Assembly (NCBI GenBank): GCA_024137785.1
Contig: JAHRHZ010000031.1
Location: 14,094,423-14,158,422, forward strand
Length of the DNA: 64,000 bases
From: Ginglymostoma cirratum
Taxonomy: Eukaryota
Direction: 5' to 3'
The notes under the pieces are model-generated. The model did not search any database. It was given only the letters and a program-made list of their open reading frames with translations, and had not been told where the DNA came from. The position numbers were made by a program, and so were the translations under genes. Positions within the stretch are counted from its first letter, which is position 1, and the number at the start of each line of letters is the position of its first letter. Shown here piece after piece: positions 8,005-64,000 of this stretch.

Positions 8005-9630
8005 CATAGAACATAGAACAGTACAGCACAGTACAGGCCCTTCGGCCCACAATGTTGTGCCGAACTTTTACCCTAATCCTAAGGTCTATCTAACCTCTGC
8101 CCCTACCTTATATTATCATCCATATACCTATCAGTAGCTGCTTAAATGCCCCTAACGAGGCTGACTCCACTACCCTCTCTGGCAATGCATTCCAAGCCCC
8201 TACCACTCTCTGAGTAAAGAACCTACCTCTGACATCTCCCTTATATCTACCTCCACTCACTTTAAAACTATGCCCCCTCGTAATAGCTACCTCCACCCTA
8301 GGAAAAAGTCTCTGGCAGTCTACACTGTCTATATCTCTGATCATTTTGTACACCTCTATCAATGTCACCTCATCCTTCGTTGTTCTAAAGAGAAAAGCCC
8401 TAACTCTCTCAACCTTTCCTCGTAAGACCTTCCCTCCATTCCAGGCAACATCCTGGTAAATCTCCTCTGCACCTTTTCCAACGCTTCCACATCTTTCCTG
8501 TAATGAGGCGACCAGAACTGGACACAATACTCCAGATCTGGCCGAACCAGGCTTCCCGGGGGACTTATCTATCTTCAACCTCCTCAAAATTCCTAGTACA
8601 CCTTCCTTACTAACATCGACCTCCTCTAGCCTACCAGCTTGTTTCACACTGTTCTCCTCTACAACTAGGTCCCTCTCAGCTGTGAATACTGAAGAAAAAT
8701 ATTCATTAAGGACCTCTCCTATCTCTTTAGGCTCCGTGCACAAATTCCCTTTACAATCCTTGATCGGCCCTACCCTTTCTCTGGTCATTCTCTTATTCCT
8801 CACGTATGTGTAAAAAGTCGTGGAGATTTCCATGATCCTATCTGCCAAGGTTTTCTCATGCCCCCTTATAGCTCTCCTAAGCCCTTTCTTCAGCTTCTTC
8901 CTGGATAACTTGTATCCCTCTGGAGCCTTTTTCATTCCTTGTTTCCTAAACCTTACGTAAGCATCCTTCTTCCTCTTAACCAGTCGTTTGACCTCTCTTG
9001 AGAACCAAGGCTCCCTCACTCGACCACATCTTCCCTGCCTGCTAGGGACAAACATATCGAGCACACGCAGTAAACAATCTCCACATTTCAATAGGGCTCT
9101 TCCCTGACAGCATCTGTTCCCATTTTATGTTACCCAGTTCTTGCCTAACAGAATTGTAATTACCCTTCCCCCAATTACAAACCTTACCCTGCTGTACGTA
9201 CCTATCCTTTTCCATGACTATTGTAAAAGTAACAGAGTTATGATCGTTACTGCCAAAATGCTCTCCTACCAACAGGTCATTGCCAAGTACCAAATCCAAA
9301 GTGGCCTCTCTTCTCGTTGGTCTATCTACATACTGTGTCAAGAATCCTTCCTGAATGCACTGGACAAAATCCACTCCATCTAAACTATTACAACTAAAAT
9401 GTTTCCAATCAATATTTGGAAAGTTGAAGTCACCCATGACTACAACCCTGTGATTCTGCACCTTTCCAGTATCTGCCTCCCAATCCGCTCCTCTACTTCT
9501 CTGCAACTACTGGGGGTCTGTTTTAAAAAAAAAACTCCAACAAAGTGACTGCTCCTTTCTTGTTCCGGACCACAACCCAAACTGACTCTGTAGACCTATC
9601 ATTCTCGAACTGCCTTCCAGTAGCTGCTAA
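8005..9630 (-). mobile_element. CR1/HER1-type LINE, 5'-truncated, RT core deleted
   Basis: ORFs 9042-9506 (VVMGDFNFPNIDW, PTR..ATLDLVL, SNDHN: APE endonuclease) and 8108-9091 (LNEYFSSVFT, KSPG, TRGH.FK, FFTQRVV..WN.LP); tandem-repeat tail at 8005-8035. Confidence 0.95.
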
Positions 9631-11800: not shown

Positions 11801-11885
11801 TGTCCAGACCCGAAACGTCAGCTTTCCTGCTCCTGTGATGTTGCTTGGCCTGCTGTGTTGATCCAGCTCTGCACCTTGTTATCTC
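11801..11885 (+). mobile_element. Short Penelope terminal-repeat insertion with 10-bp TSD
   Basis: gacccGAAACGTCagc...gcttggcctgctgtgttgatccagctc; ctcatttata at 11791-11800 and 11883-11892. Confidence 0.75.
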
Positions 11886-14249
11886 ATTTATACGCAGTTT
11901 CTTCTTCTCTCACATGGAGTAGAGAACCTTGATGGTGATACTTCTTGACATGAAAGTCAGAGCAGGGCATCTAGCAGCTCCAGCCTGCCACTTCCTCCTT
12001 CAAGCCTCCACCTTGGACAGTCTTGAGCATCTCCAGGTACTCCGTACAGACAGAGACCATTCTATACCCACTGTTCACATTCGTTAGCATTGGACACACA
12101 TCAGCTTCATCACATTATCAAAGTGCGTTTCTGACTCTCAAAATATAGTTCTCTACTTTAATACTGCTCTTTGAAGTGCACCAACACCTTATATTGTAAT
12201 GCCTTTGTCAGGTCACTTTACATACTGGGAAGGGCACCCATCTCGTGCATTGGAAAATGTTGCATCTCCAGGCTGTTGGCTCACTTTGTTGGCATTCACT
12301 CATTCTGCACTTACTTGGATTCTCTGAGCAGCTCTGCCTTGCCTTGCATTTTTTTTATTTGAGGCTTGTGGCCTCATTCAGAACTCAAAGGCTCCCAGTA
12401 GATTTGTCTTGCCTTGCCATTTAGTGCCAGAACAAAGTAAGGCAGCTTTCCGTGTTTGCCAACAGTGATCAGTCCAGCATACGCCAGCAGTTTACAGAGC
12501 AACCGCACTCATGCTTCAGGCAGATGGTTATGTCTCGAAGTCCAAGGGGACATCCCCTGGTCAAGTCAAGGAAACAGTCATCAGTCACGGGTTTCTGTCA
12601 CAGTCAGTTGGAGATAGATCTGATTTCAGCCCACGGTCCTTGACACAGCCAGTTGGCTAATTTGGGACGGTCAGGGTTAAGTTTCCATACCACTGAAGTC
12701 CAGGAAATGTGCCAGATTGAGCCCTACAGGTCCAGTGCGACCAGTTCAGGGAGTAGTGCTATGTCAGTTGGGCAGCTGAGACCAGTCAGAGGTTTGGTCA
12801 CCATTAATCAGGACTGTCTGACTGCCCAGGAGGGTTTAGCCAAAGGTCACCACTGCCTGAAAATTAAGGGAGTGGTTGACATAGGGCACACTGTGGTATG
12901 AAGGCCAGGGTAGTCAGTAATGGGGATTGGAGGGAGCATGCTGGAGTGCAGAGTGAAAAATAAATGTGAAGGGACCAACTAAACATACTGTAAATACCAT
13001 TTCTTTATTTTTGTGTAGTTTTGATTATGGACTGAAATGGGAAAAGAATTTGTTTAAAAACCAAGGATTGTTAAAGGCACTTGTTAAAAACAAGTTGCTT
13101 GACATTCAATGTAAGTGTTGTTTACACAGCTGTTGGTTTAGCAGTGGAAAAGGCTAGTTACAGATAAGCTGGAACCAGGGACTCTGGAAATTTGGCTGCA
13201 ACAAGTAGCTGTTTGGTCTGAAATAGTGAAATGGTGACCAGTTATCAATGACAAATGCTTCCTGTGTGCTCGTAACTAAATGATAAGCTCCCAAGTAGTC
13301 GAACAGCTTAGGTAGGAACATCCAGGGTAGAAGTCATCGGATCGCTAGAAGGGAAGGAACTTTGTTTCTGCTCTGCAGTAAAAAGTATCCCAAACCTGAA
13401 GATAGCCACTTTATTTTCCACTTATTGATTACACTAAGCTGTGACTTAATTGATACATTAGAAACCTTTGTAAGTGTGAACCAGTCACCTTGTGCCTCTT
13501 GCAAACAAGTGGAAGTAGGAAGTACCCGAAGAAGGAAGATATAGAGGCAGTGTTCTCATCAGCAGATGGATAATGTCAACAAACCCTGTGGAGAAGAACC
13601 ACTAACTGCCTTCCTAGTATCTCATCGTCATTGTTATGACAATTATTCATAATTGTTTATCTGTAGTTTAGAATATTTATTTGTGATAAATAGTAATTCT
13701 TATTAAGCACAGCATTCTGGTCCATACTTTATCAAGGACTAAAAGACAGGTAAATAGGGGAAATTCTACATACTTCTTAAAATCTTTAACGTTTGTAACA
13801 ACTCTGAGCAGTGAGGGTATTATTTCTTGAATGCCAGTGCGGCGTGACGGTCTAACAGTGAGATGATAGTACATTGGAGAACATGGGTTCATGTGCTTTC
13901 GACAGGATGATGCAACATGAAGGTCAGCAAGGCTAACCTGTGGGTAATGTCGAGAGATGAAAATTACCTCAGAGTCAGGTAGGAACGTGTGGGAGCTCAC
14001 TCCTAAGTGGGTCGACAGTGAAGAAAGGAACATGAAGGGTTGTTTTTGGTCACTGATTAACTGTGCTAGCGTATTAGCCTGGGAGTTTTGGATTAATCTA
14101 GTAAAGTTATCACTAAACCACTGCCTCTCCTAATTGGACATCATTTGCTAAATAATTCTGATTATATTAAAAGTTAATCTTAAATTGGTGGTAAGTGTTT
14201 CAGTGGGCTTGCAGTACACTGGACATACTGGAACCTAAGGTTCTTGAGT

Positions 14250-14575
14250 AGGTTTGTAGCTTGGATTGTGGATGCTGTGGTTGGTTTGCTCGCTGAATTG
14301 TTTTGTTAGTTTGCAGACGTTTCATTGTTGTGTTTTCCCGCTGGTTATTTAAACTCTGGAAATGAGATAATCAACTCCAACGGACCCCAGAGTTTAAATG
14401 ACCAGCCGGAAAACACAACAATGCTTCTTCGGAGACTGCCCTGATGACATTACCCAGCAGGGTAACAAAACGTCTGCAAACTAACAAAACAACTCAGCGA
14501 GCGAACCAACCACATTACTCAGCAGGGTAATGAAACTAATGAACCAGCTCGGCAAGCATACCAGAACCTACATAT
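14250..14575. mobile_element. Penelope-type inverted terminal-repeat insertion
   Basis: 14276-14322 pairs with 14468-14514 and 14323-14359 pairs with 14387-14423; contains a hammerhead motif. Confidence 0.8.
14437..14478 (+). ncRNA. Minimal type-I hammerhead ribozyme motif (G12 mutated to A)
   Basis: tgcc-CTGATGA-c-a-TTACCC-agca-GGGTAA-c-AAAA-c-GTC-tgca; the inverted arm at 14316-14323 keeps GAAACGTC. Confidence 0.65.
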
Positions 14576-16084: not shown

Positions 16085-16200
16085 GGGTCTCTTGTGGTGC
16101 AGTGGTAGTTTCCCTACCCTTGGACCAAGTGACCTGGGTTCAAGTCCCAGCTGCTCCAGGGATGTGTAATAACATCTCTGAACAGGTTGATCAGCAAAAT
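16085..16200 (+). mobile_element. Short tRNA-derived SINE, family C
   Basis: tggtgcagtggta A-box, GGTTCAAGTCC B-box; matches the 7294 copy. Confidence 0.75.
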
Positions 16201-22828: not shown

Positions 22829-22981
22829 TTATGTGTAAGAATTCAGTCGTTCTTTTGATCGGGAAGCATGGATATCGTGAAGTTCCTGCTCTTCTTTCGT
22901 TTTGAGATCCTGGTATATTTGCATTTTGCATGCATCCTTCAAGTACGCCCAGTTTGCAGACAAAATCATGAGGAAATGGAT
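22829..22981 (-). CDS. GPM6B: GPM6B distal alternative terminal exon (long, M6A-like tail)
   Basis: cccttctcttccag| acceptor; IHFLMILSANWAYLKDACKMQIYQDLKTKEEQELHDIHASRSKERLNSYT* (TAA 22831-22829). Confidence 0.96.
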   Translation of the reverse strand: MHFLMILSANWAYLKDACKMQIYQDLKTKEEQELHDIHASRSKERLNSYT

Positions 22982-23469
22982 CTGGAAGAGAAGGGTGAGG
23001 AGGATGGCTAGTGAGCATGTCAAGATGCATAGCATGCTGCTCGTCAGATTACTCCAAGCTGTTAATTAAAACAAGGTTACAATTAAGGGTAAAACTAAAG
23101 ATCGTATAATTCTCAGTAGTGCAACAACTTAGCTGTTATTTGGGATCACACAAAGACGCAGCTGTCAACACACAAAAGTATGGACATGAAAACTAATTCA
23201 TGAAGCTCTATCTTGAAATACAGTTTAAAGAGAGACATGGACAGTTTTCTATGTCCTGAAAGTTTTTGAAAATCATGAACCAAAGCTAGAAACCAAGTCT
23301 TAAAAATACAGAATACTGAATTTAGTTTAATAAAAGATGTTTTCTAGGTATGCATTTACAACAGTCTAAATTATAGGGAGCATATGATGCTGTTTTCTTA
23401 GGAGAATGTTCGTGAAAAATGCCTAAATCCAACCCAAAATGTAAGTATGTAGAGAAGACTGCATTTTGA

Positions 23470-27433: not shown

Positions 27434-27514
27434 TTAGAATTTTGTGCAGCAGTCTTCTCGACTCTTAAACTTCAAAACAGCAAAGTTATATGTGGTAGCC
27501 ATCATGTAGATGAG
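27434..27514 (-). CDS. GPM6B: GPM6B proximal alternative terminal exon (short, PLP/DM20-like tail)
   Basis: tttccttctaccag| acceptor; LIYMMATTYNFAVLKFKSREDCCTKF* (TAA 27436-27434). Confidence 0.96.
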   Translation of the reverse strand, partial: LIYMMATTYNFAVLKFKSREDCCTKF

Positions 27515-30246: not shown

Positions 30247-31397
30247 CTGTCAAATTAATCAAAGTAAAAGTAACATTTCTAGTATTGTGTCAATTAAAAC
30301 CTGATGATTTTCAAATTGCCAAATAAACCCTTCTTGTTTGTGGAAAGATGATAAATTTTTTTTTAAAAAAAAGCCAAATAGTGAACATTGGATTGATCTG
30401 TCGTGTGATTAAACATACAACCTATAACATGTAATATCGGTCTTGCCTTTCCTTGTCCGATAATAAATGCAGCTAGCTATGTGGATGTTTTAACCAACTA
30501 TTTTTCTGAATACTTTACAAAACAACATTAAAAGGTACATTATGTAAATGTTGGACATTAGCTAAAGGGTGGCATCAAAAGATCCAAATCAGGTCTATCT
30601 TAAAGTTGATCCAAAATAGAGAAATTTGAAGAAGAATGGAACTCTGTTCTGTAAGATAGCTTTGCACTGCTCTATGGTTACAGGATAAATAATTGAATAA
30701 TTTACCTGATCCAGTTCAATATAGCAGTTAGAAAGGTACATTTTTAACTGCTGCATAAGCGTATATTTTCAAATGATTTAATTGTAGTCTGAAAGATGAT
30801 TTACTAAAGCATTTGTAGAAAACTGTTGTTAATATCCTCATAAATACCAACGTCAAAGAGAAATTTTCAAAATCTCATGAAGAAAGTTGAGGAAATAGGT
30901 CTGCTGCCAGCTCATTAATACTCTTACCCATCCCACTGAGGCTGTAGACTAAACAGTTTTTTTGTGTTTGGCAGGTATTAGTTGGAAAAAAACACAAGGC
31001 ATGTCTACACCTATGTGTTTTGCTAGATCTGTTGTCATCCTGATCAAGTATGTCCAGACCCGACCACTAACTCCCTCTAATGCTTCCATGAGCGAAAGAA
31101 AGCATGCATGTAGACGCTGCCTTTGTTATCATCCACTTCAAACAGGCACTTCTGGTACCATCCAACCTGCCTCCCTTCACTCTGTCATTCCTGTTCTTAC
31201 AAAAGCCATAAATACAGAAGAGATCATGTCAGCGTCACTGAAGATTAAAACAAATAGAAGCAGAATAATTGTCACAAAAGCTCCAGAAACACAGCTCGTA
31301 TGGAGATGTTTACTGAATCTCCTCATTGGCAGCTGTAATTCAAATTCCCTATACTCTTAGTAAGACAAAATGCCTTCTTAATATTGATGTTACATAA

Positions 31398-31735
31398 AAT
31401 GAAAGAACTTACACTCATATAGCGTCTTTCTCATCCTTGGGACATTCCACAGTATTTCATGCTCAGCACTTTTTGAAGCATGCTCATTGTTCTAATATAA
31501 GAAATATGGCAGCCAATTCATAAAACCATGTCACACAAAGAGCAATGACATAATGATGAGCTAATCTGTTTTTAATCGCGTCGACTGAAGAAGAAATATT
31601 GATGAAAACACGAGGGAGAACTCTCCTGCTTTTATCCAAACTGATGCCATGAACCATCCAACAGAACTGAGGGGTCAGGTCTCTAGGACTTGAACCCACA
31701 ATCTTTTTATAGAAATGAAAGTTATACCATTAAAT
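31398..31735 (-). mobile_element. SacSINE1-like Deu-SINE, internally deleted
   Basis: Reverse complement has B-box GTGGGTTCAAGTCC, a Deu-domain-like catggcatc...gcaggagagttctccctcgtgt and an L2-like tail aaagacgctatat. Confidence 0.7.
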
Positions 31736-32714
31736 CAAAGTAAATGACCCAATATGATATGTAAACCCTAGTGTGTGCACAAAAATCATATCATATAGCA
31801 GCTTCATTTAAACAATTAGTTCTGGTCTGTATCCTTAAGAGATGTTTTAAGAAAACAGCACAGCTAAGACAAAAGGGGCTCATGTTGTTAAATTGTGAAA
31901 TAAAGCTAAGAAAATTGAATCTGCTCTAACTTAACGATGAAAGAGAGAAGAACAGAGGCCACAATTTTTAAATAATGAACAAAATCAATATTGTGGATAA
32001 AAACAAATATTTTGTACACAAGAACATAAGAGAATCAGGGGATATGATTCAGAGCTAAATAAGCAAGCATTTAATCTTGAGAAAATTCTCTCATTGTCCT
32101 TCACTGCTAATGCAACCATTGCACTTTATCAGCTTCAGGTTTGTTCATTTGATCTCCTCATTGGCCTTGCTCCCTCTTCTCGCCACAAATTCCCCATTTA
32201 GCTCCAACTTTCCAAATCGATGTCACGTCTCCTGTGCTGCTGACAGTCCAATTTTCCCATTACCCTCTTCTCACTGACCTGACTCCTAATTCCATGAAGC
32301 TATGAATTTTTAAACCTTATCCACGTTCAGAAAACCCTCCGTGGCCTCTCACATCCAAAATCCCCTCCAAATTATTCATCCTTTCTGCAAATACTCCATT
32401 CTTCCAATATCAGGCGATGGTGCATGGATCTCCCTCCCTACACCCTCGTCCTTTTTTTTTTAAAAAGCAAATAGGGACCGAACTACCAACTGTCTGTAAT
32501 ACATTCTCTAAATCTCCGTTCCTTGTCACTTATCAAAATGCATCTCTTCAACCAATCTTTTGGTCAACCCTTCTAATATTGCATTGCATAGCTCAGGCCA
32601 TTTCCTGCCCCTATTGTTGTTTTCTGTGCTTTAAGTACAGTTGGGGATAATTACCCAAAATTGCCCTATTTCTATAAAATATCAGTGTCCATTGGTAATA
32701 CAAAATTTGAGTGT

Positions 32715-33215
32715 TGCTGGGAAAAGAAAGGACACATTCTTTTCAAATCATTCAGTCTGGCAATCATCAGGATAATTCCAAGAATTCCAAATTAGGGGAA
32801 TACGAACATTTACACCGTATGAGAGGAGAATTTTGATTGCCGAGGAGAATGTACTAGTTAATGATGATTGACAGTTTACAAGCAGATTTTGTTTAAACTT
32901 TAAACCAGGCAAGTTGACTCCTATTAGTTAAGGACTGGAAAATGGTTGTCACCTATTTTGAAGAGTTGAAACAGGTACAGCGTGTGTGTATATGTTCTTT
33001 CTGTCTGCAAAGAATGGGGCCATGTGTATTAAAATATGTATCGTGCAGTACACACAAGTGCATCACATTGTCAGCCTGACCGACAATCTAAATAGGTTAT
33101 CAGCATAAATATTTCACATAGTAAGGTTTATCCAGCAAATGTTGTCCCATTGCAGAATCGCATCCAATGTTGGACACTGTGTTGGAAGATTTGCAAGCAT
33201 GGGGTGTTGGTTACA
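32715..33215 (-). mobile_element. Penelope-like GIY-YIG 3' fragment with terminal repeat
   Basis: Minus reading CDSAMGQHLLDKP ... HGPILCRQKEH, the same family as 2950-4350. Confidence 0.75.
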
Positions 33216-33840
33216 ACAGCCAGAGGTATGCTGATTGATAATGATCTACCATAAGATGTAGGAACAGAAGTAGACCATTCAGCCCATTGCATGTGCTACA
33301 ATATGAGAACATGGCTGCTAATCCCCAACTCCACTTTCCTGCCATATCCCCATAACTATTGATTCCTTTACTGATTAAAAAAATCTGTCTCTCTAGCGTG
33401 AATGTATTTAATGACATAGTCTCAACAACCTTCAGTGGTAAAGAATTCCATAGTTCACTACTCTTGGGATCAAAAATGAAGTAATTTAGATATTGTTAAA
33501 TATGTACTTTTCAGATCAATGCGCTATACATAAATATGTTCTCAATCCATTACATATTTTAGCAGTATTGCCATAGTTTCATAATTTTCATGAAACTGCC
33601 TTGTTATTCTCTTGGAAAACAAAACTCACTAAATTAATCAACAAATTAGTTCATGGGTGTTACTCATAAAATCATAACTACAAATTCAAAGGACCAACTG
33701 GTGATCTTAACTAATAAAACCTAGATCAAGGTCCCCAATTCAACCTCTTAAAGGGTTTTTGCGCTTTCGACTCCATTACTTGTGCTGTTAGTAGGGGAGA
33801 ATTCCTGTCACAAGCCCATACTTTATATAAAGGGGAAAGA

Positions 33841-34110
33841 ATTTTTTTAAAATCAATCACGGAGAGAGGGTGTCATTGGCTAGGCAGCATTTATTGCCAA
33901 TCCCTAATTGTCCAGAGGGCATTTAAGAATCAACTACATCGCTGTGGATCTGGAGTCACATTTAGGCCAGACCAGGTAAGGAAGGCAGTTTCCTACCCGA
34001 AAAGAACATTAGTGACCTTGATGGGTTTTTCCAACAATCAATTCATGGTCATCATTAGACTCCTAATTTGACATTTTTTTTATTGAATTCAAATTCTACC
34101 ACCTGTTGCA
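33841..34110 (-). mobile_element. SINE family B copy
   Basis: tctggagtcacatttaggccagaccaggtaagg core. Confidence 0.8.
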
Positions 34111-34900
34111 GGGAACTCCTCTGAGTGACATTACTGAAAGGTTTGATAAAGCCTCTCCTCTCTCTTTCTTCATTGTAAACAGATGTTATCCTTGTATTAA
34201 GTCATATGGGAAGCTGTTCACAAACATACAGCACTGCAAAACATCAGACCTTTGTAGAGGTCTTTATTCTACTAAGTAATAGATTAAGGAGAAATATATT
34301 TATAGCAATTTATCAGCTGATGGGACTCAATAAAGCAGGAAGGGATGTGGATTTGTAGCGAGCAGGCACACTGGCATTTTTGCTTTTGAGGCACCCCCTC
34401 CCCAACCTCTGGTATTATAAAAATTGCAAGCAGCTGAATATTTTTACTATAAAAACAACTAGTTATAAAATGGAACATACATGTTGTAAAAGGTAATAGT
34501 TCTCAAAGAGTTGATGGGTATAGCTCATGCACATTTAACAATCTGATGCCACAATATCATCTTTTGGTGTAGAAACAGTAAGGCTAAAATGAGATCCAAG
34601 TGGAGCCAGTCATGACATACCTGGTCTCTAACAGTTGCAATTATGCCTAACTAGTTAAGGTTAATTATACTTATGACAATTGTACAATTAACTATACCTT
34701 GATATGTAAAACATATACCTCCTTGTTAAGACTCCCTAGTTATCAATTTTAAAAACTAACAATTAGGCCCTTAGACTCAGCAGAAAAAGGAAGGTTGGTG
34801 GCAGCAAACTACCCAGAGGCGGATATGTCAATATATGTTTTGTTCTTTACTCAATGTGAAGCTGAGCAACAGGTTTGACAAGCTGCAAGGTGTTTTCATG

Positions 34901-35005
34901 TTAGTTCATCAGTCCTGATGAAGGGTCCTGATCCAAAATGTCAACTTTCCTGTTCCTCTGATGCTGCCTGATGTGCTATTGTTCCTCCAGCTCCACACTG
35001 TATTG
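34901..35005 (+). mobile_element. Short Penelope terminal-repeat insertion with 13-bp TSD and decayed hammerhead
   Basis: aggtgttttcatg at 34888-34900 and 35006-35018; gtc-CTGATGA-agggtcctgatcc-AAAA-t-GTC-aac. Confidence 0.8.
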
Positions 35006-37370
35006 AGGTGTTTTCATGCACCCATATTCAGCTGGTAGACTGTAATTGGAGGTTGGGTGGTACAGTTTAACATGGACAAATATTTGATAGATGAATGCAA
35101 CAGATTCTGAATGAGCTTTTGCAAGGTAAAACTGGACTAGGAAAAGAATTTAAAAATTTGATTCTCAAGATGCCACAAATGCAATTGAAGATTTCTTTCT
35201 CCCCTCCAACAGTGGGGCTTCGTTGAGCCAGAAATTTTCAAATGGAATTTTAGGATGTGGGGCTTGAAGCTCAGCTTGGGGTTGGACAATGCAAGTATAC
35301 TAGGTAGGATGTTACACAGTGTTTCAAACTGTCTTTCTACACTGCTTTATTATATACTCTCAGGCGATCTACAATGAACAAGAAACAGAGCAAAGCTCCT
35401 TCTAACACTATACCTGAGGACGAGAGAAAATAGAGAGAAACCAGTTCTGCTGGTTGGTTGACTAGTTCTATGGGACAGAGTCTCAAAAATTAAAGACAGC
35501 TTGGTCAGGAGTGAAATTAGAAAACACTTATCCACACAAAGGTCTGTAGAGAATTGGAACTTTCTTTCTCAAATGATAAGGCTAACACATTTTTCTACAG
35601 TTCCACCACCTCAAAATTTGTCACTACACCCTTGGCCTCAGCTCAAGCATTGTGTTCAGTTAATGAGATTTAGTCAGTATTATTGAGAGTGCTTTTCTGG
35701 CTGAGCGACTTCAGCTATGAAGATTGATTTAAGAAGGTATGACATTTTCCTTGGAGAAGAAAATGCAGAGAGAGGATTTTGACAGTGGTATTCAAAACTA
35801 TGAAGATTTTGGACAGATACAATCTTCCTACTTCTGAAAGCAAAGGAAGCAAAAGTGATAGCAGAATGGTTAAGGTCTGGAATGTGCTACCTGCCAATGT
35901 GGTGGAGCTCGCTTCAATCCAGGCATTCGGAAGGGAATTAGACTATTATTTGAAAAGGAACAATGCGTACGGTTATGAGGAGAAGACAGGACAATTTTGA
36001 GAGCTGGTGTAAACATGAAGGGCCAAATGGCCTCTTTCTGCATTGTAACATTGGTGGTTTCTGTCTGGAATCCTGGGGTCAGCGAGTGAAGTGTAAATTA
36101 AAGCTCTGCTATTCAAAGGAAGCATCACAGCATCTGAACAATGATACATTATCCTTTGAGACTGCTATTTTTTGCATCACTGGTTAACAGTCTTCACAAA
36201 TCCAGATTTCCACACTGGGCAGCCCAAAGGGCCATGAGACCAGAATTCCTCCTACTTATGTGAAAAATAGAATGATTGTTCTGTCCTTCAAGGCATATGG
36301 AACTTTATTTTAAAAATGATTGTTAATGAAACAGGAAATGGAGGTCTGGGGTAGAATAATCAAAACTGCAGCTGCTTTCAATCAGAGGTTGTGACCTAAC
36401 ACCAAAAAAAATTTCCCTAAACAAAAGTGATTGCCGGAATGGAAATATTATGTAATCTACAGTGAGCCCAAAAAATCTGCTTGTGAAGACAAACTAATTC
36501 CCTAGCATTTTTTGGTCCAAAGTTACATTCACACATGCTGTTGTTCCACAGCTGTGACAAGGCAAACTTTTCACAGTATTCACAGTGATGTCATTTTATT
36601 TAAAATAATGACCTGCTGCCTCTTGTACCAGTCTTGACATAAACCCTCATAAGTGATCTTCAATTCCCCCAATGATCAGGGGCTGCAGTCCGCCATAGAC
36701 TCATATTTCTGGAGCGATAGTGGTGCCCACTGCATTTTTGTTCTATTATACACATTCCTATTATACACCATTTGCCAATTAACTGCCATGTTTGCATACA
36801 GTTTATTTTGAAAAAAAACATTTTTCTTATGTTCTGTCCACATCCCCACCTCACCCCTACAGCCTTGTCTTATTTTAATTTGTTCTTAATAGAAAGGATC
36901 CATGGGACCCATTCTCTCCCTTTCACACCTTAATTCACAACCATATTACATCTTTTTCTCTTTCACCACATTAACCCCTTTGTCTCTTGCACTGGGCCTC
37001 TATGCCATCTATCTCCTTGCTCCCCCTACATCTCTATCAAAAGTATATATATAAAAAAAATCCCCAACATCTTTCAGTACCGAAAAAGTCATACTGGGTC
37101 TCAAAATGTTGATTCTGTTTCTCCATCTATTGATGCTGCCAGACTTATTGGGTTTCACCAGCATTCTTTGTGTTTGTTTCCAATTTCCAGCATCAGCATT
37201 ATGGCTTCAAAGCCAGATTGCAACATAAAATCTAGGCAAACACTTCACTGATGAGCTGTCAAATCAAGGGAAAACCGAAAGAACTGCCGATGCTGTAAAT
37301 CAGGAACAAAAACAGAAGTTGCTGGAAAAGCTCAGCAGGTCTGTCAGCATCTGTGAAAAAAAAAAATCAG

Positions 37371-37408
37371 AGTTAACATTTCGGGTCCGGTGACCCTTCC
37401 TCAGAACC
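37371..37408 (-). ncRNA. Minimal type-I hammerhead ribozyme motif, catalytic core intact
   Basis: Minus strand: ggtt-CTGAGGA-a-GGGTC-accg-GACCC-GAAA-t-GTT-aact; perfect 5-bp helix II; helix I ggtt/aact. Confidence 0.7.
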
Positions 37409-37435
37409 CCTACCCCCAACCCTAACGCAGGTGAC

Positions 37436-37445
37436 NNNNNNNNNN
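37436..37445. other. Assembly gap (10 N)
   Basis: N-run flanked on both sides by aacgcaggtgac. Confidence 0.99.
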
Positions 37446-37557
37446 AACGCAGGTGACCCTTCCTCCGAACCCCGAACCCCTAACCCCGATTTTTTTCTTG
37501 ACAGATGCTGCCAGACCTGCTGAGCTTTTCCAAAAACTTCTGTTTTTGTTCTTAATT

Positions 37558-37818
37558 CAAGAGCCCCTATTTGTCCTCTCAGGTGACTGCAAGATCCCAC
37601 AACACCATTGCAAAGAGAAGTAGCAGAGTTTTCCCCTTACTCTAGAAAACATCTTTTCCTTACCAAAATCGATTGTAACAAGAAAGGTAGCATATTGCTA
37701 TTATGTTAAGTTTGGTGTGCACAATTGACAACAGTGTTTACACTTCAAAAATATCAAACTGTTAAGCTCTTTGGAGCATCATAAACTTGTTAAAAGGACT
37801 ATTCAAGTTCGTTTTCTG
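37558..37818 (+). mobile_element. Degraded SacSINE1-like Deu-SINE
   Basis: ctctcaggtg...aagatccca...acacttcaaaa...aagctctttgg. Confidence 0.55.
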
Positions 37819-38583
37819 AACAAAGATTCAAAGATTAAGTTCATACAGAGATATGAGCAGTTTTAAACAGGACATGTAAAGGGAATGACTGCAGCCAAGT
37901 GTGAAAAATGGTGCAGAGGTCAACTGGAACACTTCCGTGCCTCAGACTGTGTCCAACATTGAGGGGCCCTCTGACTATGGATTTTAAAAAAGTTCTGTCA
38001 AAGAAGACAGTGCGTGGTGTTCGTTATACAATTATTTTAAAGAAAGAACCTCATCACCTTAAAAGACAACAATGAATTATGTCTCATTAACATTCTTTGC
38101 CCCATTAATTTGTTGCCTTTTTATTTACATTATGACATTCTTGACTAATACGATCACACAACAGTGAATGAGGCCCACTGTGTGGGATCTGAATTTTTCC
38201 CAGTAAAGATGGGGTTGTAAATGAAACATGGAGAGACTGATCTGCATGTTAATTCTTTTGCTTTTACAATACCTGGGTCACTGGAGAAGAGATAATCTTA
38301 AGCAGTAATGTAGCCTAACCTGCACTTCACTTTTCTGATCTCCATCTTATACTACGGTGAGGTTGTCAGAGCCAGAAATCTGCAGAGCAGTTATTTCATG
38401 ATGCTAACCACCATTCAGCCAATGTTGCCACTTCAGAATTCAAGGTTCTAACTTATGCCCTCCCTTAACCCTAAACAGCAGAATAAGAACCAACCATCAC
38501 TGCTATTTTAAAGGACTTCAAAGCTTCTCCACACATCAGTTGTTCCTAGACACAGGAACATGCATTGACATTCCTTTAGAGCA

Positions 38584-38772
38584 CAGGTAGTTCTCCTATA
38601 ACGTGATAGTTGCGTTCTTCTGTGACTTCGTGCTATAGAAAATCACGTTATAGGGAAATTGCTATACCCGTACAGCTGAAAGTTTGTGTTATTCCAAACA
38701 GCGTCCACTATTCATTCATTGCATTACAGCCAATTTGTGTTAACGAAATATGTGTTATAGCAGAACTACCTG
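38584..38772. mobile_element. Tc1/mariner (Tigger/MER6-like) MITE, 189 bp
   Basis: 19-bp TIRs CAGGTAGTTCT(C/G)CTATAAC, 18/19 match; TA on the right flank, CA on the left. Confidence 0.85.
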
Positions 38773-39498
38773 TATGACAAGACTTGAAGGACGAGGAAAG
38801 GATGTGCATATCAGGATATCCCATATACAAGTGCACAACATGCATGTGATGAAAGCATGTTTCTACACAAATCGTGATGGAGAAACCTAAGGGCAACCAA
38901 AACAATGCTTCCACTGTCTCCAGCACAAGGGTGCAGCCATGCAGTTCTGTTAGTTCTGGTCTCAGTAACATATGCCCCGATAGTAAACAGCGCTGTGTCC
39001 TCCAATAACAGTTAGAAATATGGACTCGCACCCACCCGCCACCTTGGTTAGTTCCTGATGGGGAACACTACATCCTGGAAGACAGAAGGAAGTGTATCGA
39101 TGAGTGGGGTGTAATATGTTCAAATGGTGTGGTTATCTTGTTGAATAGCTAGTCACCTGTACAAGCTGTGAGATATGGATGCAAAGCTTGCAGCAGTTCT
39201 TGGAGTAGGGTGAAAGTAAGGTAAAGCTATTCATGTGAAACTTGAACCTTGGTTGATATAGATTGTTGGTAAGTGAGTAAAGAACCCAAGAAATTGGAAC
39301 AGAAGTAAAGCACATTGGCCATCGAGCTTGCTTCACCATTCAATACGATCATGGCTGATCTTACTCCTCAACACCACTTGCCTGCCTGCTCCCCATTTCC
39401 CTCAGTAGAGAAGTCAAGACTGATGGGAGCATGGCGTATTCCCCAGTAGTCAGGCTGGTGGCGCTGTCGGTCAGATTTGACATTCAAAAGCCCACATT

Positions 39499-39564
39499 GA
39501 AATCATTGAATTTCTTGCAGCGCTGCATCTTGGTCTTCAGGGCTTTACTTCTGGTGTTGACCTC
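39499..39564 (-). mobile_element. Myb/SANT-like coding remnant, probably from a PIF/Harbinger transposon
   Basis: EVNTRSKALKTKMQRCKKFNDF resembles the Myb/SANT-like third helix (VN....RT..QC.KKFNDL). Confidence 0.5.
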
Positions 39565-39784
39565 CAATAGTTTATTGCACTACAACCTTTTCAGCATGTG
39601 TTCAGAGGGCGTGGAGGCATTCTCAGCAATATGAAGAGACATGATTGCATTCAATTTTATAATAAATATAATATTTTATATTCTCCATCCTGTCATGAAG
39701 TCCAGTACAGTATTAGCATTTCAAAATGGCCTTATCCACTTGAGATGCTTCTTATAAGGCTTATGAAACCACCTAAATGGTTTT

Positions 39785-40060
39785 TTAGTGAATTTAGTAG
39801 AACTCTTTGAGGAAGTAACATACAAGATGGATAAAAGGGGATTCTACAGGTTTCCAAAAGTGGATGTAGTGTAGTGGGATTTTCAAAACAATTTGCTGAA
39901 ATGCCACGCAAGAGATTATTATACAAAATTAAAACTCATAGGGTTAGGGTCAATATATTAGCATGGATTTAGGATTACTTAATGGAAAGAAAACAGAATA
40001 GGAATAAACATAACTGTTTCTGTTCAGAGACTATAATTTACAGGCGCTACAAGTGACTTG
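39785..40060 (+). mobile_element. CR1 reverse transcriptase fragment
   Basis: Decayed VDVV*WDFQ...P.KRLLYKIKTHRVRVNILAWI*DYLMERKQ. Confidence 0.75.
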
Positions 40061-40199
40061 AGCTCTCAGTCAGACTTGTAACACATGGCTCCTTTACGCC
40101 AGTGAGAAGCAACATATGTTTATATGCAGGGATCTGTTCCCCACAAATGAAAAGGAATAGATTCAACATGTTTTGTTTAATTATCCAGCAGCTTGGGGG

Positions 40200-40380
40200 A
40201 ACCTATTGTTTCCTGATTTTCTCCATGGCAATGCCTTGGCAAACCACAGTCAACTTGCCAACTACTCCTTCCTCCTGTGGTATAATCTGTGATCGTTTAA
40301 AATTTGGCATTTTTACATTTGTCCTGATGAGTACAAGAGAAAAAAACTTCAGCAACATGCCTCTCTTTTATTGGCGATGA
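40200..40380 (+). mobile_element. Penelope-like terminal region with hammerhead remnant at 40321-40353
   Basis: ttctccatggcaatgccttg...gtc-CTGATGA-gtacaaga-GAAA-aaaacttc. Confidence 0.6.
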
Positions 40381-41931
40381 TATTTCACACCTCGCTTATA
40401 ACCAGTCATGTCTTCCCTGATATCCTCCCTTCTGCAAACAATGGTTTGAAATGTTTATTAAATAATCCTGCCAGTTTCGACCATTCTCTACTAACACACT
40501 TTCTTTGCCTTTCAGAGATTTCACTCTACATTAACTCATTTTTATTATTGGTATAATTATAGAATTTTTTTTATTTTATGAACTCTCCTTATACTGCGTC
40601 CTTGTTTTATTTTTAAGTTCCTCTCCTATTGTCTTCTATTTTTATCATACCTTTCCGACATTTGTGTTTTCTTCTTTATTTCTAATTTGTTACTAATCTC
40701 TAATTTATCCTCTATATTCATGCTCTACATTTACAATGGCCTTTCAAAAGGTCACATGGTTAACCGACTGTCTTGTGTGCCAATTTCCCTTCCCACCATA
40801 CCTCAGCAAGCACAATCCTCATTTTCTAAAAATCTGTCTGACTCCAACTGGTGCCCACAGTTTTCGTCCCTTTCTACTTGCACCTCAAATTTCCAAAGGT
40901 GCTCATCTCCATTTCTCAATTATTCTTTTTTAGCCTGGTGGAAATAAGAGGCAGGACTTATATCAGAAAACTGGGCATCATCTAACCTACCTTTCTTCTG
41001 TGCAGTACACTTTGGCTTTGGCCAAGCACAAGGTCATTTTTGTGAGATTCAGAAAATTTAGACCCAAAGCATTATCGACCAAAATATGAGACAAGACCGT
41101 CTACTATCGCCATTGCTCTTTAACATCTATGCAAAAGTCATAATTAAAGAAACGCTAAATGAAGTACAGAAACAAGAAGGAACAATTACTAATGAAAATC
41201 AAGAAAAGACAACAAGGTTAGATGGCTGTATTCTCAAGTTTGAGAGCTTGAAAGGAGATAATTGAAGGAAGATCAGGTGTATATCAACCAAGAGGCAAGA
41301 ACAGCATGATGATATTTGGTAACAGGAACTTGACTGCTACAGGAAACTGAAGAGGAAAGCAAATCATGGAGAACAAGCATAGGACCTGCCTTTGGGAGGA
41401 TAACTCCCATCACTACAGCGACCAATTGATGCACTTCCAACCGAATGGATCACATTAAGATCAGTAGCTGTAAGTTCAGTCACAAGACAGTATCTCTTAA
41501 CGTGTGCATTAATCTTGAATTGAAATTTGTGTCGGTAGGAAGTACACAAAAATTCAATACCTCGAAGTCTGTATAACTGACAGCTGCAAGAGAGAATAAA
41601 AATAGTGCACATATATCTCTCGTCTTTGCGTTAATCAGTAATGAAAAACAAACAAGATGCCCTACACTTACAGTGAATTGTGCAAATGTGTTGTATACAT
41701 ATGTTCCACCGGAGCTAATGTACTCTTCCATTGATATACCCATAACCTGGTCTATCTTAGGTATGTTGGGACTGTCACAATCCAATGCTACTCAAAAGGT
41801 ACTTTTCGGTTTAATTCTATGCATGTGTAGTTCGATCAGCAAAAAGATGCTGCTATCATTTGCGATTCTCCTTTAAATTTCCTCAACAGAAGCATATGCT
41901 CCTAACAGATGATGGCGAGATGTTACATTAC

Positions 41932-49039: not shown

Positions 49040-49240
49040 CTGAAAACAAGAAGTGCTGGAAGTCACAGCAGGTCAGACAGCATCTGTGGAGACAGAGCAA
49101 GCTCATGTTTCAGGTCTGGATGACTCTTCATCTAGGCTCAAAACGTTAGCTTGCTCTCTCCATGAATACTGCCTGACCCACTATGATCTCCTGCATTTTT
49201 GTTTTCAGTACAGATTCCAGATCTGCAGTAATTTGCTCCT
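49040..49240. mobile_element. Penelope inverted terminal-repeat insertion with about 14-bp TSD
   Basis: Arms 49040-49110 and 49140-49209 are inverted; aagtggttaataca (49026-49039) vs aaatggttaatgca (49241-49254). Confidence 0.78.
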
Positions 49241-60158: not shown

Positions 60159-60279
60159 ATCATAGGTACTGCAGATGCTGGAGAATCCGAGATAACAAGG
60201 TGTGGAGCTGGATGAACACAGCAGGCCAAGCAGATGCTCCTATGATGCTGCTTGGCCTGCTGTGTTCATCCAGCTCCAC
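60159..60279. mobile_element. Young Penelope inverted terminal-repeat mini-insertion with perfect 16-bp TSD
   Basis: gtggagctggatgaacacagcaggccaagcag is perfectly inverted; cacttccctgcctgag at 60143-60158 and 60277-60292. Confidence 0.85.
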
Positions 60280-61968: not shown

Positions 61969-62388
61969 GGGACCCTGCCGCCTTCTGGACTCAACATCGA
62001 GTTCAGTAACTTCAGGGCTTGAGCCCTCACATGTCCTTACCCCAACCCCAGCCGACCACGCCTTGTTAACAGAGTCTGCTATTACACACTACCCATTGTT
62101 AGCCATTAACAGTCCCCATTAAGAGATATTCACCCTCCTCACCAAATTGTTATCCAATCCTTTATTTGTCCAACCTATCTTTTCTTTCTTTGGGCTCTAT
62201 TCCCACCTATTGTTTGCTCCTTACCCCCTTACCCCAGCCTATCTTATGCATATAAACCAACAATTCCTTAGCTACCATCGGTTCTGAAGAAGGGTCATTC
62301 AACCCTTTTAAAAACATTTAACTCGGATTTCTCTTCATAGACAATACCAGACCTGCTGAGCTTTTCCAGCAATTTCTGTTTTGCTCCT
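61969..62388 (+). mobile_element. Penelope-like element 3' end (GIY-YIG C-terminus plus terminal repeat)
   Basis: GTLPPSGLNIEFSNFRA* (61969-62022), a typical PLE P.GLN ending; then ggtt-CTGAAGA-agggt-cattca-accct with decayed GAAA, and ccagacctgctgagcttttccagca shared with 37270-37552. Confidence 0.8.
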
Positions 62389-64000
62389 TGCAGGAGTAAG
62401 GTAGCTGGAGCTCAGAGACCTTCCATGATCATGCCCCTCATTGACATTACCTTCATTTAGCTCCACACAGTAAAAAATAAATACATAAATCCCACATCTC
62501 ATATCTTCTTAATATTCTTTCCTCTTGGCAACCAATTTGTTTTGACAGAGAGAGATTCATTCAGCAACTCAAGCTAATTGTCATTAATAAAATCCATAAA
62601 GATGAATTAGTTCCTCAAGACATCTTCCCCCATTCACAAAGGAAAACATATCACATTTTGTACACATGCTGTGGAACTACAACATCTACCTCCAATATAT
62701 TAAGAGGCACCGGCTTGATTTGAGTCTCTAAGCTACCCTCACCAGGAATCAGGCCAGGCCAGGCCAGTCCTTGGCATCTGTTGTGGGTCAGGCGTGGATC
62801 AACTTTAAGTCAGGCCAGGCTGCACACATCAGCAGCGAGACCAGGACGAGGCTTTCCTTCAAAATCAGACACCGTGGAGCTGCAGCTTGGTGTTATTACT
62901 GGGGACTGGTTTGGGTCAAGGCCCTGAGAAGATTTCACAATGGGCCTGCAAGCAACAGTTTAAGTCAATGCGGTCACTTTGCAGCAGCTCCCTGAATCAC
63001 AGTCTGAATGGGAGAATACATCATCACTGTGCTCTTGCTTACTTGCATGTAAGTTTTGTTGAGTTTTGTCCACAGAGGGAGACATTTCACTAACTACTTC
63101 AAGCTGCAGTATTTAATAGAAAATTAAATGACGTAAAGTCTAAGCTCTTTATAATGTAGCGTCTCATGCAAAAACCGGGAATGTTTAAGCCTGTACAAAG
63201 GCCATGTAGAGAGATATTACAGCCAGACTGCAGAGTATTCTTGGCACTCAACACTCAATGAAGCCTTCACTTCAGAGGCACCCTGTACAGATCTAACATG
63301 CCACATAACACAAAAATGTTACAAAAAGGGGAATATTTATACACTTACAGTTCCCTTGCACTTGTCCCTATGATATCACCACACAAAGATTTCCACACAA
63401 ATTATCCATCCCAGCAGTTTACCGGGATAGTAGGAATGCAGCAGTTGCCTTTTATTCAAACTTCCTTTAATGCTGACTTGGTATTGCTGTTACTGAGAAT
63501 AGTTAACACCAGATCACATACAAAGGCCCACTTTCTGCCACGACAGACAGCCAAATTTGGCATGGCGAAAGTGACAGAGGTAGTCAGAAGTCACAAGTCA
63601 CCCCCCTCCCCTTTCCCTGAACCTCCTCACCTCCCCGAAACAAACATGCATTTCCCATTTTCATTGAGTGGAGTATAGTCATGCCTGGTTTTGCACGTGC
63701 AGATTTTACAAGGTAGCAGGCTAGTTAAATCACCAGCCCGCTTCACTTAAGGGGGATTTTGGCACCTTGTGGTGTGGGAATCAGAACCTGCACATTAGAC
63801 CTGCTAAGAGCAGGTGAGAACATTGCAGTTTTGTTTGGATAGTCAGATATCCGCTTTGGAGAGGTAAGGTATCCCAATGGACATGCTTCCGTGGCACCGG
63901 GGAAGGATGTCAGACGCCCTTCAGGATTGATAAAAGTACAAACAAACTTTACTGAAAAGTGCATAAATTGATTGGCACTGTCAAACTTTAAAAAAACTGG

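Follow-up and report, generated by a model that had tools for sequence, protein, structure and literature searches.

A short fold-back Penelope-like insertion with a minimal hammerhead motif in a GPM6B intron of Ginglymostoma cirratum: a high-copy family and a probably idle copy

Background

Minimal hammerhead ribozymes (min-HHRs) of Penelope-like elements (PLEs) form a class that has been known since 2014 from fish, coelacanth, frog and reptiles and is described as inactive in monomeric form and weakly active in dimeric form (PMC4209133). For the anole hammerhead, it is reported that protein is needed, that the ribozyme is dispensable for insertion and that no cut ends appear in RNA-seq; internal starts of reverse transcription (RT) have been shown in vitro for the anole Poseidon element in the same study (PMC11167929). 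How PLEs transpose is poorly understood, and the role of the PLE hammerhead has been called unclear in a work that also describes the motif CX2-5CxxC, located in the linker between the RT and GIY-YIG domains, as a mark of Neptune and Nematis PLEs (PMC8557442). With regard to promoters, a TATA and initiator (Inr) pair has been noted in the pLTR of a rotifer PLE (PMC3846280), and an internal TATA-less promoter is reported for Drosophila Penelope (PMC2377424). A 2026 preprint covers one chondrichthyan (10.64898/2026.07.22.740005), two supplementary files of PMC4209133 contain no shark terms, and our search of the open-licence literature brought up no publication dealing with PLE hammerheads of sharks or with short PLE copies (stubs) bounded by the transcription start.

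Results and discussion

The window, that is, the 64-kb stretch of Ginglymostoma cirratum DNA analysed here, contains a single site that matches a strict min-HHR descriptor (intact core, helix II of at least 4 bp and helix I of at least 3 bp), namely the motif at 37408-37371 (Table 1); the same descriptor yields 0 sites in all 40 of 40 dinucleotide shuffles of the window. The letters bear out the minus-strand reading of the first-pass annotation, with its intact core, 5-bp helix II and extra A, and helix I can be extended to up to 6 bp including two G.U pairs. The motif combines the core CUGANGA / GAAA / UH and helices I and II with one nucleotide between A9 and position 10.1 and a G10.1-C11.1 pair, as in PLE min-HHRs; the palindromic 15.1-16.1 segment is present at the level of the family and absent from this copy, which reads AUGU. 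The extra nucleotide is found in 71 of 71 descriptor matches, under a scoring script that favours it on ties. The parallel with the CChMVd viroid drawn earlier for the extra A is unnecessary, given that the presence of a nucleotide between 9 and 10.1 is standard and conserved among metazoan PLE min-HHRs (PMC4209133), so that a viroid-like origin becomes superfluous. The Rfam check that had been proposed was run on the window and gave no hammerhead match reaching the gathering score, in keeping with the lack of helix III. Neither a loose hammerhead pattern alone (3 matches in the window vs 1.65 expected) nor the folding energy of the motif (z of 0.19, -0.61 and 0.10 relative to shuffles) rises above chance, and thus the strict descriptor alone separates the motif. 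The sequences at 11812 and 14316, previously taken for sister copies, belong in fact to B-like and D PLE families, and their arms lack the CUGANGA half. Taken as a whole, the motif is a genuine PLE minimal hammerhead of the class already described in 2014.

Table 1. Features in the window around the hammerhead motif, with the basis of each assignment
Feature	Position	Strand	Basis or remark
GPM6B host intron	30247..41931	-	11,685 nt; fourth intron from mapped ATG exon
Minimal type I hammerhead motif, family A	37371..37408	-	core intact, 5-bp helix II, extra A, palindrome AUGU
Hammerhead helix I 5' arm	37408-37405	-	sequence
Hammerhead core CUGAGGA	37404-37398	-	sequence
Hammerhead extra A	37397	-	sequence
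Hammerhead helix II arms	37396-37392 / 37387-37383	-	sequence
Hammerhead GAAA	37382-37379	-	sequence
Hammerhead U-G-U-U	37378-37375	-	sequence
Hammerhead putative cut	between 37375 and 37374	-	sequence
Hammerhead AACU	37374-37371	-	sequence
Main arm, short PLE pLTR copy, from inferred transcription start to long 3' end (tail)	37271..37407	-	family copies
Inverted second arm without tail	37471..37557	+	self-complementarity to main arm
G-rich junction with partial tandem duplication of the motif's 5' half	37409..37470		poorly supported
Candidate target-site duplication, left copy	37554..37563	-	8/10 identical to right copy; weak
Candidate target-site duplication, right copy	37261..37270	-	sequence; weak
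Branch-point-like UUAAC, U-rich tract and CAG before AUG (3' splice-acceptor-like)	37348..37376	-	sequence, common to family copies
Further decayed PLE pLTR copies, families A, B, D	62238-62409 (+), 49043-49132 (-), 34915-34995 (+), 11806-11885 (+), 60186-60278, 14235-14514		none passes strict descriptor

The host gene is GPM6B, with chondrichthyan M6B proteins at 80-88% identity as the top matches (best of 28 matches). Its Myelin_PLP exons are on the minus strand of the window, and a tblastn search places the coding exons from about 88 kb (outside the window) down to 22.8 kb. Because these exons are on the minus strand and intron 41931-30247 spans the motif, the hammerhead is both sense and intronic, so that the mapped exons confirm its original placement. 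The gene has alternative last coding exons at 27437-27514 and 22832-23026 (both on the minus strand), which match the short and long C-terminal isoforms. Elsewhere in the window, broken LINE ORFs at 8108-9506 (-), which we take to be CR1-like by motif, include endonuclease- and RT-like stretches, and a tRNA-like Rfam match at 16096-16158 (+) is probably the head of a tRNA-derived SINE.

Family A and other hammerhead families

The 33-nt motif core has 5,568 exact copies in the G. cirratum genome and the downstream 38-mer of the same family, denoted family A, has 15,029 exact matches (0 in the reversed control in both cases), so membership exceeds 15,000 copies. A search of the same genome with the 126-nt arm produced 1,217 candidates, the best of 40 scored being 92-97% identical. 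Among 30 core-selected copies (the first 30 in contig order), 5 extend upstream by 130-373 nt; an inverted arm is present in 11 of 30 family A copies, and the 3' ends of 30 copies are mostly near +100 or +135. Long copies encode a GIY-YIG domain (Pfam E 1.3e-4, just over the cut-off) and RT motifs including YIDD (weak Pfam RVT_1 match, E 0.031), and the hammerhead accordingly lies in the pLTR of an element with both domains. The linker ahead of GIY-YIG contains C-x4-C-x2-C, in agreement with the Neptune pattern CX2-5CxxC, and by this motif, rather than by a tree, family A would be classified as a Neptune-type PLE. No full-length element was recovered in the genome, where the attempts ran into assembly gaps; three long "open frames" considered as full-length coding sequence proved to be runs of N.

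Three other hammerhead families were detected in this genome, namely B (58,062 exact 32-mer matches), C (428 and 532) and D (725). Pair 2.1-1.1 of helix I is U-A in families A and B, C-G in C and A-U in D; helix II reads GGGUC/GACCC, GGGU/GCCC, GGAGC/GCUCC and GUUAC/GUAAC across the families, these strings being fixed by search patterns taken from earlier descriptor matches; and the palindrome is ACGU in A, B and D and AGCU in C. Compensatory changes in helices I-III thus separate the four families, and within family A there is decay only, so that the covariation of helix II anticipated across copies holds between families but not within family A. Family B is a very young, abundant Neptune-type element, with 135,341 first-look endonuclease-region candidates, the best 150 of which are at 95-100% identity. 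In 40 arbitrary 10-kb stretches with a total of 232,928 non-N bases, the strict descriptor matches 12 times (27-90 per Mb; 0 in reversed controls), and it matches 7 times in 193,300 bases beside the window. The estimated density of about 45 per Mb extrapolates to the order of 10^5 motifs genome-wide, which implies that many introns of this genome hold one by chance.

The decay of family A was assessed in 54 of 60 copies picked regardless of the state of the core (6 were dropped as truncated or gapped). The C at the decayed palindrome position is kept in 37 of 54 copies, and CpG sites have changed at rates of 20-31% vs 3-7% elsewhere, in support of the earlier view of AUGU as a CpG-decayed ACGU. 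Core and palindrome are both intact in 14 of the 54 copies, and another 17 show the state of the GPM6B copy, that is, an intact core with a decayed palindrome. Non-CpG core positions have changed in 18 of 540 cases vs 46 of 810 at other positions (p=0.05), a slight retention of the core that may reflect subfamily variation or ascertainment.

Anatomy and proposed origin of the insertion

The short 3' end of the main arm maps near 37305, and loose contig ends heap up in their thousands at 37271, 37305 and 37407 in all seven runs examined. The inverted arm, which precedes the motif in the transcription order of the GPM6B pre-mRNA, is complementary to the main arm over 68 nt at 90% and a further 29 nt at 76%; neither this arm nor the assembly gap near the motif figures in the first-pass annotation. 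The tandem partial duplication at the insertion junction comprises 34 nt. The G-rich repeats of this junction are slippage-like and include two TTAGGG hexamers on the minus strand, G runs also occur ahead of the stub start in four other copies (L002, L004, L007 and L042), and such repeats could represent either non-templated synthesis or sequencing error beside the assembly gap. Judging from the flanking letters, a 10-bp target duplication around the insertion is plausible. The left insertion junction is spanned, with a difference of 4-8%, by contigs from two other organism labels, none of which covers the orthologous core; given that the inverted arm is common to these labels, the insertion is old and fixed, and no empty-site allele is found among the joints listed. 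In family A generally, a strong 3' splice-acceptor-like signal overlaps the cut site and is followed by an AUG, and in two copies (L023 and L081) the tail is succeeded by another acceptor-like tract and by what is likely the start of an ORF.

Two other kinds of hammerhead locus were considered and rejected. A non-LTR retrozyme would form a head-to-tail array of HHR monomers, and no such array is present here; the structure is a fold-back with unique flanks and only the 34-nt partial duplication. The ultraconserved intronic hammerheads of amniotes are canonical, with a full helix III and tertiary contacts; a domesticated ribozyme of this type, with low copy number and a canonical helix III, is at odds with the high copy number and lack of helix III in the shark motif.

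The reading that we favour, with a probability of roughly 0.85, is that a PLE with a Neptune-type linker left a short fold-back insertion, the front of which bears the hammerhead motif, and that this copy is likely idle, decays neutrally and is predicted not to cut GPM6B pre-mRNA. Under this scenario, the pLTR promoter, with a TATA-like box and an initiator-like A, would start an RNA the first ~40 nt of which constitute the hammerhead. The PLE protein would nick AT-rich DNA and reverse transcription would begin at an internal site, some 100 or 135 nt away from the start of the RNA; extension of the cDNA to the 5' end of the RNA would give a 105-140-nt stub, and two cDNAs that originate on opposite sides of the cut would be joined head to head into a fold-back. 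The two 3' ends near +100 and +135 match the internal RT starts described in PMC11167929, and together with the inverted arm they correspond to the PLE layout of an inverted pLTR and a 30-40-bp tail given in PMC8557442. In an active element, the ACGU palindrome would pair two motifs and allow weak, probably protein-aided cleavage; the GPM6B copy has AUGU at this place, and pairing of its inverted arm with the 3' half of the motif is predicted.

Alternative explanations

The first-pass annotation suggested that the motif might self-cleave within GPM6B pre-mRNA upon pairing with a second copy. A working ribozyme of this kind, acting as a dimer with a partner transcript in trans or with help from the PLE protein, is compatible with the intactness of every core residue, with the folding of helices I and II in the isolated 51-mer (helix II at 0.96), with the sense orientation in the intron and with the about 10^5 genomic motifs that could provide trans partners. 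However, the 4-bp dimer helix has a predicted energy of +2.6 kcal/mol for AUGU vs -1.7 kcal/mol for ACGU, and in the assembled context, gap included, the arms fold into a -147 kcal/mol hairpin that sequesters the motif, with a probability of 0.0 for helices I and II (helix II reaches 0.14 when only the sequence 3' of the gap is folded). From the ATG exon to the final GPM6B exon that was mapped, the motif is also the sole strict sense one, leaving it without a cis partner across the mapped coding span; the nearest other intact sense motif is located about 56.6 kb upstream, past the mapped ATG exon, and an unmapped 5' exon of GPM6B could include it. Furthermore, even intact PLE min-HHR dimers are reported to cleave poorly (PMC4209133), and cut ends are missing from the anole RNA-seq (PMC11167929). 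With an unstable AUGU duplex, a sequestered motif and no cis partner in the mapped coding span, the suggestion of self-cleavage is not sustained: the folding models make it unlikely that this copy cuts GPM6B pre-mRNA, and a working dimeric ribozyme is, in our assessment, very improbable. Were the copy to cleave neuronal GPM6B pre-mRNA, relics of PLE ribozymes could act on host transcripts; the evidence points away from this.

The insertion might affect GPM6B in a different manner, as an intronic dsRNA hairpin of ~105 bp that would be a substrate for A-to-I editing, or as a cryptic exon recruited via the splice-acceptor-like signal. The long inverted repeat, the U-rich tract with CAG-AUG in the sense orientation and the bridging of the left junction in runs of the two other organism labels are compatible with such effects, but both features are usual for family A, in which the inverted arm recurs as noted above, and we regard this possibility as unlikely. 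Finally, the motif could be a chance match or an assembly artefact, considering that a 10-N gap (37436-37445) lies 28 nt away with an identical 12 nt flank on both sides, and that the contig depth in the G-rich junction drops to about 2-7 at 37414-37435, compared with 40 in the unique flank (one run). Against this stand the lack of matches in 40 shuffles and the thousands of exact copies, which speak against chance, and the continuation of the unique flanks into both arms in independent runs, which confines the doubt to the junction 37409-37470; an artefactual origin of the motif is therefore hardly credible. As one of roughly 10^5 such motifs, the GPM6B copy is of small consequence by itself, and the pattern of stubs at the family level is more useful.

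Stub 5' ends and a proposed shared transcription start

When 30 family A copies were anchored on downstream sequence, with the motif ignored, the start lay between -5 and -1 relative to C3 in 20 cases and within the motif in 7; another 2 copies started at -10 or -19, and 1 began at a gap. No more than 2 of the same 30 start near the cut site. Among loci picked without reference to upstream sequence, short copies account for 59 of 66 in family A, 24 of 35 in B and 39 of 39 in C, and the family sequence fades at -4/-5, -4/-5 and -7/-8, respectively. The initiator consensus is YYANWYY, and the A found at each stub boundary in these three families fits it. In long copies, the boundary A is preceded by TATAAA at 29 nt in family A and by TATTTAT at 31 nt in family B. 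For family C, it was expected ahead of looking at the long copies that a TATA box would precede the A at -7 by about 30 nt, and in these copies (14/30) the majority sequence from -37, 30 nt before that A, is TATAAATT. Given that this expectation held, the stubs are likely to be complete cDNAs of an uncleaved leader RNA. The offset of the stub boundary is constant with respect to the TATA box and varies with respect to the ribozyme.

Other origins of the boundary fare less well. A splice origin was rejected because the G at -3 is kept in 49 of 59 short copies and the upstream sequence is not shared; a boundary set by RNA structure is disfavoured by family C, which ends at -7, past its helix I. 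Retention of the C before the boundary A in 16 of 25 family A and 7 of 12 family B copies counts against the start model. A cap-derived extra G is not clear in these two families (G at -5 in 3/25 and 3/12, respectively), and family D lacks the stub pattern, with most of its 30 copies long and 2 of about 6 short ones starting at the predicted site. On balance, we lean towards the interpretation that the shark stubs, which number in the tens of thousands, represent full-length cDNAs of the 5' leader of Neptune PLE RNA in its uncleaved state, bounded by a TATA/initiator start and two internal RT starts. If so, they would constitute a huge in vivo record in which the ribozyme occupies position +1 and is hardly ever cleaved in the inserted RNA, and would bear directly on the purpose of PLE hammerheads. 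Stub ends that track the promoter and not the cut site would make the question of the role of the hammerhead testable in a shark.

Comparison with known systems

The metazoan PLE min-HHRs described by Cervera and De la Pena in 2014 (PMC4209133) resemble the shark motifs in the core, the extra nucleotide between 9 and 10.1, the G10.1-C11.1 pair, the short helix I and the palindromic 15-16 segment, as well as in the prevalence of solitary truncated copies, the presence of opposite-strand pairs and the coexistence of many families per genome with compensatory changes. They differ in number, with about 4,000 reported in coelacanth and 9,000 in Xenopus vs the order of 10^5 here, and the GPM6B copy differs further in having lost the palindrome. 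The Poseidon element of Anolis carolinensis (Frangieh et al. 2024, PMC11167929) shares with family A a pLTR hammerhead, two internal RT starts with an optional tail and uncleaved RNA as the main template, whereas family A possesses a Neptune-type zinc linker and lacks an AUG in the core; no connection between a promoter and the 5' ends of stubs is made in the main text of that study. The Neptune EN+ PLEs (PMC8557442; PMC3846280) are described with the same CX2-5CxxC linker, an inverted truncated copy and a 30-40-bp tail on one side, but in the shark most copies are stubs of 105-140 nt, with a single sharp boundary at the 5' side. The ultraconserved intronic hammerheads of amniotes (RECK and others; PMC6155905) are, similarly to the GPM6B motif, type I, sense and intronic; they are reported as conserved across lineages, whereas the shark copy is minimal, belongs to a high-copy family and is decaying.
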